Source of the DNA: Candidatus Thorarchaeota archaeon
GTDB lineage: Archaea > Asgardarchaeota > Thorarchaeia > Thorarchaeales > Thorarchaeaceae
Direction of reading: 5' to 3'
Assembly (NCBI GenBank): GCA_029858305.1
Contig: JAOUFI010000005.1
Coordinates: 1 to 64,000, forward strand
Length of the DNA stretch: 64,000 bases
Position 1 is the first letter of the stretch; each line of letters opens with the position of its first letter. The position numbers and the translations under genes were made by a program. The notes below the pieces were generated by a model. That model was not told the DNA's origin. It saw only the letters and a list, made by a program, of their open reading frames with translations, and made no database searches. Of this stretch, positions 19,097 through 21,902 are shown one piece after another.

Positions 19097-19265
19097 ATTT
19101 ATATCAAAGAGGGTGTAGCAAAACTTAAGACGATACACTAGTCATGCTTTTTGACCCAAAAATAAACTGAGGTGAAAATCGCAATGGGTACTGAAACATC
19201 ACACTCTGCCCATCAATATCGGGTCTCAAACACGAAAGGTGACTGCCAAATTAAGGCAGGTGAAC

Positions 19266-19598
19266 GTGTTCTCGAGTGACCGTAAGGTCTCCTCAACTAA
19301 TTATAGCAGTCTTGTAGCAACTCTCTTGCAATTAGCAAATGCCAGACTGAGTGATACTCAGAAGGCTGTTCTGATGATGGCTCACAGACTTCTAAAACAC
19401 GAAAACCTGACTGTCACAGCACTAGCAGATCAAGTTTCTCGAAGGTCTGCTGTCCCTTATAGTACCGTGAAGTGGAATCTAAGGTCTCTAAAAGAGATGG
19501 GTTTACTGAAGGGTGGCGACATGTGCTGCAAAGGAGAAAAAGCTCGCTTGACGTATGAGGCTCAGATGATAGCAGACTATTTTGAGAGAAATCACTAG
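19266..19598 (+). CDS. Winged-helix transcription regulator
   Basis: LSDTQKAVL..., VPYSTVKWNLRSLKEMGLL, ARLT HTH/wing; start GTG 19266 (after AGGTGA) or 19239. Confidence 0.75.
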   Translation: MFSSDRKVSSTNYSSLVATLLQLANARLSDTQKAVLMMAHRLLKHENLTVTALADQVSRRSAVPYSTVKWNLRSLKEMGLLKGGDMCCKGEKARLTYEAQMIADYFERNH

Positions 19599-19603
19599 AC
19601 CTG

Positions 19604-19637
19604 AGGGGGCTTTGTTTGCCCCCTATTCTTTATTTTT
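19604..19637 (+). terminator. Hairpin plus T-tract terminator
   Basis: AGGGGGC-TTTGTTT-GCCCCCT followed by ATTCTTTATTTTT, between convergent genes. Confidence 0.65.
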
Positions 19638-19645
19638 GGGGTTCG

Positions 19646-19725
19646 CAAGAAGAAACAAGGTGCATCCCTGCTCTCAATCGATACTGCTAGGCTTTACATA
19701 CCGACATCATCGAATCTTCTTCTTG
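19646..19725 (-). promoter_or_regulatory. Eukaryote-like SECIS element (selenocysteine insertion sequence)
   Basis: Minus-strand RNA AUGA-U-GUCGGUA-UGU-AAAGCCUA-GCA-G-UAUCGAU-UGAG: tandem GA/AG core, 10-bp helix II, unpaired AAA 11 nt after AUGA; possible lower helix CAAGAAGAA/UUCUUCUUG. Confidence 0.8.
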
Positions 19726-20510
19726 AACAGTTCCCAAGCGGATGGCAAGAGTAGCTTTGCGCCATTGAGGCTGTTGCTGGCACTAAGGACAACATCCACT
19801 ACACGCCCTTGACCTGAATCAAGGGTTCCCAGATTCCATTGCAGCGCAGTGGCGATGTCTTTAGGTCCATATCTGAGGTTCTTGCTGAGGTCGGTTGATT
19901 CTTCATCAATCCTGATTTGGGTTGGAGAACTGATCTCCCAAGCATCAGGTTCTGGTCTGGATGTCATAGCCACACACAGCGGGTTATTATCACATGCATA
20001 CATGATGCCGGATTCTGGATCATAGGTTCCAACATCATCCTTGTAGCTCGCAGGACCACCAACATCGAGATCCATGATATAATAGAGTTTCAGGTTCTCA
20101 ATGGGCATCTTGCCAAGGTTTGTTGCAGAGTAACGAACCAGCAGGATCGGAGTGTTATGGCTCCACGCCTTAATATCTGATTGGACCTTGGGAGAATCAC
20201 TCTCAGATGGAGAATGACTAAGAACTAGATGCAATCCTCCTTTCCCCGACTCAACTCTAACGAGAGAGATAGTTGAACTCTCGGTAGAGCTCGCCTTGTA
20301 GACAATATTGTCTGCAACATAGGTGAGCCAAAACCCACCTTTATAGTCCGCAGGATTTCGGAGTAGTAACTGTTCTTTACCCGAGGTATCGATCAGACTG
20401 AGGCGTTTGATGTAGAAACCAAGGCGACCTTTTCCTCAGGATGAACACTCTACAGCGTATGAGATATCCAGCCTTGGGCTACGATTGCCGGTTTCAAGGA
20501 TTTCAGACAT
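19707..20510 (-). CDS. Putative novel selenoprotein (267 aa, C22-S-S-U25, Sec TGA at 20438-20436)
   Basis: ATG 20510 preceded by GTGATC SD-like sequence and TTTATAT TATA (20555-20561); single in-frame TGA; continuous with the 175-aa ORF; SECIS at 3' end. Confidence 0.8.
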
Positions 20511-20669
20511 GACCGATCACTGTACCAATGCAGAGTGAACAGTAACCTCCTGCGATATAAATCTCAGTATACGTTTAAGACATAGAGAATTCTTGGACAT
20601 CTTCTCTCCTTTCATAAAGTTGATAAACTCGTTGCAGGAATCAGCCAGTTATCTGGGTAGGTCATACCA

Positions 20670-21902
20670 ATGACAAATCTTACAGTAGACCAGCTCCAAA
20701 AATGGTACAGAAAACAGCTCACGAAAAAATCGGGTGAGTTTGTCAAACAAGCCGAGAGAAGCTATAAAGTTGTTGAACGTGCTCTGAAAGATGTACAAGA
20801 AATGGTGAAGGCTTTCGAAAGTGACGGGGAGGATGATCCAGAATCTTCTGGGATTGCTGCTAGGTTTGGTTTAAAGCTCAAAGAGATCGTGTCTGATTTC
20901 TATGTAGAGAAAGAAATCACGTACGAGAGTACAGAAGCTATGCAGGGTGAAATCCAGAGATTCATCCAGGAACTTTGGGGAGCCGGCGCCAGATGGATCA
21001 AAAGAATGGACAAGCGTCATAAAACAACCATAAAGGCTCTTGATGAAGCCATGAAGGAACTGGCAAAAGAGATGAAGCGTATTGGCAAGCTTCTCTATGA
21101 TTATGCTTGGGTTAAAGATTTAGAACGTATAGGTGGTCGCATTACTACACTCCATGACCTCACCTTTAGCAAGGATGTTTTTGAAGAACAAATCAAAACC
21201 GTGCTTTTGAAGATACAGACTGCTGAGAATGACTATCAGAATGCAAAACGTGCCAATGATGAGTTTGTTGAAATGTCTAATGTTGCAGATTTGCTTAATT
21301 TGGATGAGCAAGCTGAACGTATATCGAGTCTACTTAGAATGAAATTGAATCCACTAAAGAAACAAGTGAAGAAATTCCTGCAAGTTGATACTGGAGTTCG
21401 TATTGGACCTGCTGGTCAAATTGCCCTAAACGAATATTTCGATGATCCATATGCTGCAATAGCCAAGGAGGCTGATGGATATCCAGGACTGCTTGAAGGT
21501 CTCAGAGGCGTTCAAGAAGCAATTGAAAGAAACAAATTGGATCTGAAAGACAGACTCGGGAGACGTGCAATTGAAGAAATCGAGGCAATTAGCAAGGGTG
21601 GGCTACAAGATTTTCAAACCCAAGCAAAGAGCATTGAAGAGAAACGTCGCACATATGCTGGTTCTGATGTATACAAGAAGAGTGAGGAGCTGCAGACCGC
21701 ACTCAATGAAGCTTACAAAAATTTGGAGTATCATAGGAATGATTTACTTCGAATCCGAGATGATTTAGAACGCCAGATTACAAAAGTAAACGAGTTCAAA
21801 ACGCGAATTGAAACAGAGATACTAGCGGCTTTTAGTGAAAAAGTCACGATAGACCTTGAGGTTTCCCTTGAACCGCTTCTCAAAATGTGTACTTTAGAGT
21901 AA
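20670..21902 (+). CDS. Coiled-coil/helical hypothetical protein
   Basis: 410 aa, heptad-rich, E/K-rich. Confidence 0.75.
   Translation: MTNLTVDQLQKWYRKQLTKKSGEFVKQAERSYKVVERALKDVQEMVKAFESDGEDDPESSGIAARFGLKLKEIVSDFYVEKEITYESTEAMQGEIQRFIQELWGAGARWIKRMDKRHKTTIKALDEAMKELAKEMKRIGKLLYDYAWVKDLERIGGRITTLHDLTFSKDVFEEQIKTVLLKIQTAENDYQNAKRANDEFVEMSNVADLLNLDEQAERISSLLRMKLNPLKKQVKKFLQVDTGVRIGPAGQIALNEYFDDPYAAIAKEADGYPGLLEGLRGVQEAIERNKLDLKDRLGRRAIEEIEAISKGGLQDFQTQAKSIEEKRRTYAGSDVYKKSEELQTALNEAYKNLEYHRNDLLRIRDDLERQITKVNEFKTRIETEILAAFSEKVTIDLEVSLEPLLKMCTLE

Follow-up and report, generated by a model that had tools for sequence, protein, structure and literature searches.

A probable new selenoprotein family of Asgard archaea with a decoding element on its stop codon and a predicted beta-supersandwich fold

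The locus and its reading frame

The stretch of DNA analyzed here (the window) comprises 64,000 nucleotides, positions 1 to 64,000 of the forward strand of contig JAOUFI010000005.1, from a Candidatus Thorarchaeota archaeon (GenBank assembly GCA_029858305.1, a metagenome-assembled genome of 205 contigs). On its minus strand, the ATG at 20510-20508 opens a frame of 267 sense codons that is closed by the TGA at 19709-19707, so that the full gene occupies 19707..20510. The single internal stop of this frame is the TGA at 20438-20436, which is codon 25 and gives the motif E-C-S-S-U-G when it is read as selenocysteine (Sec, U). The frame reads MSEILETGNRSPRLDISYAVE-C-S-S-(TGA 20438-20436)-GKGRLGF... 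at its N-terminus, continues past the internal TGA as GKGRLGFYIKRLSLID..., and ends in ...WELFKKKIR-TGA. Its product is very probably a genuine selenoprotein of a new family. Gene calling with translation table 11 yields a 175-aa open reading frame (ORF; 19707..20234) that starts at TTG 20234, and the 67 codons between the internal TGA and this start (codons 26-92) are open. The initial annotation of this DNA had described the 175-aa ORF as the C-terminal part of a longer protein that begins at ATG 20510 and is interrupted by one TGA only, as reading of the minus strand confirms. It had also suspected that annotation pipelines truncate the gene, and this is the case throughout: all 91 database homologues were called as proteins of 148-239 aa that start past the TGA, and every public annotation of the gene is truncated.

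The two candidate expression signals that had been pointed out upstream of the ATG are both present on the minus strand. A TATA-box-like TTTATAT (20555..20561) lies about 45-50 nt before the ATG, and GTGATC (20515..20520), 4 nt before the ATG, matches the 3' part of an extended Shine-Dalgarno site (GGAGGUGAUC); both functions are putative and read from sequence. The bases TGA TCG GTC ATG are kept in most orthologues, so that an upstream TGA is followed by the codons for "sv" in 19 of 25 loci. Sigma-70 promoter-like matches are not meaningful for an archaeon and were set aside.

Conservation of the TGA column and coding selection on both sides

Orthologues were read codon by codon at 25 loci, and a profile search of the phylum covered 400 genomes, of which 85 belong to the window's own archaeal family (f1); for 36 genomes beyond the codon-read loci, stops were counted and the column was not read. 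The TGA stands in the same column at 24 of the 25 loci, with the consensus E-C-x-S/T-TGA-G-x-G-R/S and the variant EILS-TGA in locus L029. At the remaining locus (L019, in genome G025) the column holds a Cys codon of the TGC/TGT class (CSSCG) in a frame that is open throughout, and Cys is the only natural replacement of the TGA among close orthologues. A six-frame search of 61 related genomes gave full-length matches, each with one in-frame TGA. The profile search matched the gene in 68 of the 85 f1 genomes; 61 of the matches are full-length and collinear with the window's gene, 60 with one TGA and one, the Cys orthologue, with none, and the partial matches that cover residue 25 (in G006, G008, G009, G014, G394, G397 and G399) all have TGA there. 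On metagenome contigs fetched with a relative, TGA is found at the Sec site in 10 of 10 loci. A pattern that recurs in this way in codon-read loci, metagenome loci and full-length matches is not attributable to chance. The possibility of an assembly error at this codon had been raised as something to check, and in a contig from an independent DNA run that spans 20062-20576 the TGA is unchanged.

The initial annotation had expected either TGA or Cys to be retained at position 25 of homologues, flanked on each side by conserved sequence, and the second half of this expectation is borne out as well as the first. Conservation of the first 24 residues is among the highest in the whole protein, which also has the conserved motifs DFDxGG, YKDD and GPxD...LQW; P12, R13, L14, D15, Y18, E21 and the U25 column are invariant in the orthologue alignment, and Cys22 (20445..20447), the probable resolving partner in the CxxU motif, is at least 90% conserved and missing only in L029 (EILSU). 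The ratio of nonsynonymous to synonymous differences per site (pN/pS), calculated from 210 pairs of 21 sequences, amounts to 0.27 before the TGA (codons 2-24) and 0.30 after it (codons 26-59); L018, L019, L026 and L029, which have incomplete or different starts or indels, were left out. In each of the two segments it is the third codon position that varies most. Judged by these substitutions, purifying selection is equal before and after the TGA.

A eukaryote-like SECIS element built on the stop codon

The 3' end of the gene overlaps a Sec insertion sequence (SECIS) element of the eukaryote-like Asgard type (19647..19721, minus strand), as the initial annotation had proposed; it is defined here by an alignment of 24 Sec-form orthologues and by covariation, with L029 shifted by 13 nt and the Cys-form L019 left out. 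Helix I (19721-19714 with 19654-19647) begins within the coding sequence, its 5' arm being the codons for K-K-I/M. The UGA of the AUGA core (19710-19707) is the stop codon of the gene; the core columns T23, G24 and A25 are invariant, and in 24 of the 25 orthologues the gene ends in a TGA preceded by A or G (an A/GUGA core). Helix II follows with 8 bp (19705-19698 with 19684-19677) and compensatory changes at 8 of 8 pairs. It is capped by the apex UGUAAAGCCUAGCA (19697-19685), which contains GUAAAG and conforms to the pattern YGUAAAGC-NNN-GCAG with the AAA invariant. The 3' core GAG (19675-19673) has A59 and G60 invariant and G58 nearly invariant, and an extra hairpin, helix III (19671-19655), separates it from the 3' arm of helix I. 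RNAalifold, run unguided, found the 8-bp helix II and the extra hairpin. In the full structure 86% of cells are paired, versus 46-49% with the partner strand slid; helix II has 95% of cells paired, and the observed covariation score was reached by 0 of 500 shuffles. In the apex, GC..GC could form the mini-stem of a type II element across a 3-nt loop, whereas RNAalifold pairs columns 35-47 and 36-46 there, and no covariation favours either pairing.

A covariance model of the element hits its own site at 87.8 bits and has only one other match in its own genome, at E 2; because the model is too family-specific, it is unable to find other SECIS elements. A strict SECIS descriptor found nine sites on both strands of the 3.04-Mb genome. 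The only sites at which the core UGA is the stop codon of a TGA-containing ORF are those of this gene and of SelD, and no selenoprotein-like ORF accompanies the remaining seven. The descriptor gave no SECIS element for HdrA, VhuD, VhuU or PrxL, genes that were not themselves searched for.

The genome also encodes the Sec machinery that was to be expected if the gene is decoded in this way, and for which the initial annotation had advised a check. The tRNA-Sec (58.6 bits; anticodon tca according to ARAGORN) adjoins a PSTK-like gene (E 4.6e-44); SepSecS is found on two contig ends (333.9 and 228 bits), SelB scores 286.8 bits, and SelD (G000 C180:7289-8098, minus strand; 211.8 bits) has an in-frame TGA and, from its sequence, is itself a selenoprotein. 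The stop UGA of SelD is the UGA of a GUGA SECIS core that is followed by a helix, an AAAACC apex, the returning helix, GAGG and a further hairpin, which is the same plan as that of the element described above. The Sec gene cluster is split by contig ends (G000 C133:4830-9172 and C120:4-2266) and runs in the order PSTK-like gene, tRNA-Sec, SepSecS (its C-terminal part on C133 and its N-terminal part on C120), SelB.

Predicted fold of the protein

Searches of Pfam and NCBIfam at E values up to 1 gave no match for the 267-aa protein, and a search with the natural Cys orthologue returned only clusters of "hypothetical protein" from Thorarchaeota and Promethearchaeota. An AlphaFold2 model of the whole chain, built on an alignment of 25 rows, is nearly all beta, with a mean predicted local distance difference test score (pLDDT) of 88.7 and a predicted template modelling score of 0.89. 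In the model, strands 13-22 and 29-40 form one hairpin that is integrated in the sandwich, with the CxxU motif in the loop between them; because only residues 24-26 fall below a pLDDT of 50, Sec is placed on the flexible tip of this hairpin. Foldseek matches the model to supersandwich domains at E values in the range of 1e-9 to 1e-7 (down to 2e-9). Comparison by VIA gives its highest scores with the N-domains of the glycoside hydrolase family 15 (GH15) glucodextranase 1ulv and glucoamylase 1lf6 (Z 23.3 and 22.8; root-mean-square deviation 2.5 Å over 226 residues), followed by GH94 phosphorylases, cyclic beta-1,2-glucan synthase (Cgs) and GH116 (Z 19-21) and by galactose mutarotases (Z about 14-16); over the supersandwich matches as a whole, Z is 19-23 and the deviation 2.5-3.1 Å over 226-245 residues. 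The protein is thus modelled as a beta-supersandwich of the GH15/GH94 N-domain type, a galactose-mutarotase-like fold, and is a cytoplasmic, single-domain product.

The initial annotation had described the protein as beta-rich and unlike a thioredoxin fold, and the model and its best structural matches agree. CxxU and UxxC thiol-selenol oxidoreductases of the thioredoxin fold are a recognised class, and many of its members are entered in a table of a 2026 review (PMC13188914). The new protein shares with this class a vicinal Cys-x-x-Sec motif and the exchange of Sec and Cys among homologues, but its motif sits on the tip of a beta-hairpin rather than at the N-terminus of a helix, and in distant members of the family the partner Cys is C-terminal; a thioredoxin-fold CxxU oxidoreductase was rejected on account of the nearly all-beta model and the position of the motif in a loop between strands. 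A zinc-ribbon or rubredoxin site, in which two knuckles provide four Cys ligands, was likewise rejected, as only C22 and U25 are conserved in the lineage and two or three such residues in other subfamilies. The whole 267-residue chain superposes on the supersandwich N-domains of GH15, GH94 and Cgs, yet sequence identity is only 9-14% and no match to the Pfam models of GH15_N or of the GH94 supersandwich is obtained. Unlike the enzymes of these families, the protein stands alone without a catalytic (alpha/alpha)6 domain, the gene ending after the sandwich. To our knowledge, a Sec/Cys hairpin is not known in N-domains of the GH15/GH94 type, and we know of no selenoprotein with this supersandwich fold, in which Sec would here be placed.

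A wider family across Asgard lineages

A profile search of 1.84 billion representative sequences returned 118 proteins, among them small related proteins (250-320 aa) in which CxxC or CxxCxxC stands at the same place. CxxC occupies the Sec column in P0112, P0117, P0147, P0114, P0131, P0113 and the f29 loci, and the Cys-form relatives P0114, P0131 and P0113 have CxxCxxC. In the phylum search, distant homologues were found in 113 of 135 f9 genomes, 9 of 14 f29 genomes, 3 of 4 f30 genomes, 5 of 5 f16 genomes and the one f28 genome (1/1). With the window's own genome counted, 200 of the 400 genomes are homologue-positive. The upstream stop was read through at 26 distant loci. In f9 (17 loci) the Sec column holds TGA at 14 loci and Arg at 3, in the context ...FNEILAT-U-NxxGY, mostly without a Cys at -3 and with a conserved C-terminal Cys; f30 (3 loci, TGA at all 3) has C-x-x-U plus a C-terminal Cys; f16 (3 loci, TGA at all 3) has L-C-S-K-U; and f29 (3 loci, Cys at all 3) has CxNC and a C-terminal WCK. 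A MAFFT alignment of the superfamily brings every U into register with the second Cys of CxxC. The Cys at -3 is found in f1 and f16, which have no C-terminal extension, and f30 has both the -3 and the C-terminal Cys. The CxxU motif claimed in the initial annotation holds for close orthologues but is not universal beyond them, as in many distant members U goes with a C-terminal Cys and lacks the one at -3. The claim of a new selenoprotein family is supported, with the correction that the family reaches well beyond the window's lineage into other Asgard families; as far as the sequence searches extended, it is specific to Asgard archaea.

The 3' flanks of f9 genes have AUGA, helix, AAAAA, helix, GA and hairpin in this order, with AAAUCC/GGAUUU closing the element, and so follow the three-helix plan of the window's gene. 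Helix II of the f9 element is 100% paired and adds little covariation evidence, because 6 of its 7 pairs never vary. The f29 Cys-form genes have no SECIS-like 3' element, and in the f16 3' flank (L101 and L102) a canonical AUGA...GA SECIS was not recognised. The family adds dozens of natural elements to the Asgard SECIS elements known so far, clearly covarying and with an additional hairpin, a set that is useful for work on the origin of eukaryotic SECIS elements.

At 10 of the 14 f9 Sec-form loci (L069-L074, L078 and L080-L082), there is no ATG, GTG or TTG at the expected start, and a conserved ATA (ATC in L081) is preceded, at a distance of 7-9 nt, by a perfect GGAGGT or AGGAGG. The combination of a perfect ribosome-binding motif at this distance with the lack of a usual start codon suggests AUA initiation of these f9 selenoprotein genes.

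Large archaeal surface proteins (P0115, P0116, P0120, P0162 and others) match residues ~108-260 of the 267-aa protein by profile at E values of 1e-15 to 1e-6. It is the N-terminal region of these proteins, an unannotated domain, that matches; the proteins also have transglutaminase, PKD and CARDB domains and differ from the new family in being multi-domain proteins of 600-3,700 aa without the N-terminal Sec/Cys hairpin. Copies of surface-type proteins of ~1,460 aa and larger are encoded in the same genomes (for example, G026:C45 and G017:C6).

Relation to known Asgard selenoproteins

Surveys of Asgard selenoproteins have listed five families (Mariotti et al. 2016, PMC4989117), three families for two lineages (Sun 2021, PMC9723677) and, by a homology-only search, seven families (Huang et al. 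2024, PMC11227280), and the same list is repeated in the 2026 review (PMC13188914). As given in the passages of these sources that treat Asgard archaea, the known set consists of SelD/SPS, VhuU/FrhA, VhuD/FrhD, HdrA and PrxL, plus AhpF-N-like and DsbA-like proteins (PMC4989117, PMC11227280). No description of the 267-residue family was found in literature searches or in the main text of these papers; with no Pfam or NCBIfam model either, the family is to this extent unrecognised, as the initial annotation had held. A relation to one of the known families was considered and rejected, as the profile search returned only hypothetical proteins and domains of surface proteins. The folds differ as well, a supersandwich being predicted here versus the thioredoxin-like, hydrogenase, HdrA or PurM-like folds of the known Asgard selenoproteins. 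The families listed in those passages are all shared with other organisms. The new one is about as common as the commonest of them in the genomes sampled, by its occurrence in f1 and f9, and homology-only searches miss such lineage-specific families.

In its decoding signals the new gene resembles the known ones, having an in-frame UGA and a 3' SECIS element with an A/GUGA...GA core and unpaired apical A's. Huang et al. 2024 (PMC11227280) describe an AUGA_GA core, GUGA_GA in selD of Thorarchaeia and G[U/G]AAA apices in frhA; the apex of the new element is GUAAA, like that of Thorarchaeia frhA. The overlap of the SECIS element with the end of the coding sequence, such that the core UGA is the stop codon, is shared with the SelD gene of the window's genome and with Loki VhuU.1, in which AUGA also serves as stop (Mariotti et al. 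2016, PMC4989117). The hairpin between the 3' GA and helix I is a difference, in that the descriptions of SECIS elements in the texts of PMC11227280 and PMC4989117 do not mention one. The gene is compact and of reporter size, with its UGA at codon 25 and the SECIS element on its stop codon, and may be convenient for testing Sec decoding in Asgard archaea.

Proposed decoding and function, and the alternatives

Translation of the gene would start at ATG 20510, and the UGA at codon 25 would be decoded as Sec by Sec-tRNA(Sec) and SelB under the direction of the eukaryote-like SECIS element that begins in the last codons and uses the stop codon as its AUGA core. The terminal UGA would terminate translation because it is buried in the SECIS element itself and so cannot be recoded; the same argument, that a UGA so close to the SECIS element is unable to be recoded, is found in Mariotti et al. 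2016 (PMC4989117). In the product, C22-x-x-U25 would lie on the flexible tip of the first beta-hairpin, and the selenol would cycle through a selenenylsulfide with a partner Cys, which would be that at -3 in the window's lineage and a C-terminal one in distant subfamilies, while acting on a ligand bound in the sandwich. The supersandwich fold of the model hints at a carbohydrate or other small ligand. We lean, by a modest margin of confidence, toward a redox-active selenol that forms a selenenylsulfide with the partner Cys. This role is suggested because every Sec subfamily sampled, L029 aside, keeps a partner Cys at -3 or at the C-terminus, and the movement of the partner between these two positions favours its being a resolving Cys.

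Several observations weigh against these proposals. Rfam SECIS models have no match in the window at the gathering score, nor in 19560-19800 at E values up to 10, where scans gave only chance-level matches to sR35 and the L20 leader; such models also fail on the SECIS elements of Loki (Mariotti et al. 2016, PMC4989117). The PSTK-like gene, at 151 bits, is below the curated NCBIfam cut-off of 290.5. Contigs from an RNA library cover 19667-19936, 19966-20423 and 20142-20456 in a patchy way that may reflect DNA carry-over, and none extends 31 nt beyond the TGA in both directions. The gene was not found in 17 of the 85 f1 genomes, and two genomes have internally deleted or remnant copies, so that it is dispensable. 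The database protein P0102, known from its protein entry alone, has W in the Sec column; it is read as a table-4-type gene call because all 10 related DNA loci have TGA. The f9 loci L075-L077, from three species of one genus, have Arg in the Sec column and an apparent start just before it. L029 has neither a -3 nor a C-terminal Cys, so that the partner-Cys rule is not absolute. Finally, the neighbours conserved in the window's lineage (a small helix-turn-helix (HTH) protein, a 410-aa coiled-coil protein and DtdA) are uninformative on function because the whole region is syntenic.

At L075-L077 a shifted frame or a stop breaks the N-terminal piece, and the 3' SECIS element is intact; these loci may be recent Sec losses or misassemblies. 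Of the two damaged f1 copies, L032 (in G014) is internally deleted, retaining residues 1-83 plus 218-265, and L033 (in G020) is a C-terminal remnant of residues 196-267; both sit between the same conserved neighbours, and the gene appears from these sequences to be decaying in some species.

The TGA might be a real stop, separating a leader or regulatory peptide of 24 codons from an independent downstream protein, as the uniformly short database calls, the 46-aa ORF ending at the TGA that is recorded as P0197, and the apparent starts of L075-L077 just before the conserved NxxGY motif would have it. This is very unlikely: codons 2-24 and 26-59 are under the same coding selection, the natural Cys orthologue reads straight through, the AlphaFold2 model joins strands on either side of the TGA in one hairpin, the SECIS element would be purposeless, and there is no conserved start codon past the TGA, because the annotated starts differ (giving 175, 220, 229, 234 and 238 aa). 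Readthrough with an amino acid other than Sec, through a near-cognate or suppressor tRNA that inserts Trp, Cys or Arg or through a genetic code altered in the whole lineage, would account for the W of P0102 and the Arg of three distant homologues, and is slightly less likely still, since the orthologues of the same gene terminate at TGA (24 of 25), SelB, SepSecS and the PSTK-like gene are read normally under table 11 with no internal stops, tRNA-Sec and the full Sec pathway are present, the covarying SECIS element accompanies Sec forms and is missing from f29 Cys forms, and Cys alone replaces the TGA among close orthologues. That the gene is a pseudogene, or that 20436-20438 holds an error of assembly or sequencing, is scarcely credible. 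This reading has no specific support beyond the origin of the window in a metagenome assembly of many contigs, and it is contradicted by purifying selection on both sides of the TGA and by the recurrence of the TGA in 60 genomes, in the 10 metagenome contigs and in the contig of the independent DNA run.

The main rival to the redox role accepts the selenoprotein and makes U25 and its partner Cys a metal or chalcogen ligand, for example in a knuckle-like CxxU-G site for Zn, Fe, Ni, Cu or Hg or in a carrier of Se or S. The C-x-x-C/U-G at the tip of a beta-hairpin presumably resembles the knuckle of a zinc ribbon or rubredoxin; CxxCxxC occurs in some of the Cys-form relatives, three Cys/Sec residues are present in f29 and in f30, and the f16 gene lies beside GcvH-like and SepSecS genes. 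We consider a ligand or carrier role unlikely, at a level that still calls for attention. In the window's lineage there are just two candidate ligands; between subfamilies the Cys/Sec count ranges from two to three and the second of these residues shifts from -3 to the C-terminus, which is commoner for resolving cysteines than for fixed metal sites.

Neighboring genes

At the f9 and f29 loci L097-L100 and L105-L108, a co-oriented gene immediately upstream codes for a ~320-aa fusion of Roadblock/LC7 and Ras GTPase domains (8 of 8 loci; Ras domain at E values of 1e-37 to 1e-41), and at two f29 loci a gene for a ~700-aa GH2 glycosidase precedes it. The window has no Roadblock/LC7-Ras neighbor among the nine ORFs scanned, and the upstream gene of f30 has no significant BLASTP similarity to the GTPase. 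An f29 Cys-form homologue co-folded with the Roadblock-Ras GTPase scored 0.00 and 0.00, which speaks neither for nor against binding. It is a long shot that the selenol, on a supersandwich of the sugar-binding type, serves as a redox sensor or switch coupled to signalling by eukaryote-like small GTPases, in a superfamily that is Asgard-wide and, within the searches made, Asgard-restricted; if it were so, the protein would depend on selenium in regulating proto-eukaryotic GTPase modules or in acting as their effector. At the f16 loci L101 and L102, a radical-SAM gene lies upstream of the LCSKU homologue; on its downstream side the GcvH-like gene begins after 7 nt, and a convergent gene for SepSecS comes next.

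In the window, the 410-aa coiled-coil-looking protein (20670-21902, plus strand) is encoded divergently from the selenoprotein gene and has no Pfam match; it has no significant BLASTP similarity to the 411-aa neighbor in f30, and is conserved with 57-93% identity at 28 of the 28 other loci searched. On the other side, between the convergent HTH gene (19239-19598) and the SECIS element, a GC-rich hairpin, AGGGGGC...GCCCCCT followed by T's (19604-19624, plus strand), has the form of a terminator for the plus strand and, by its sequence and orientation, belongs to the HTH gene.

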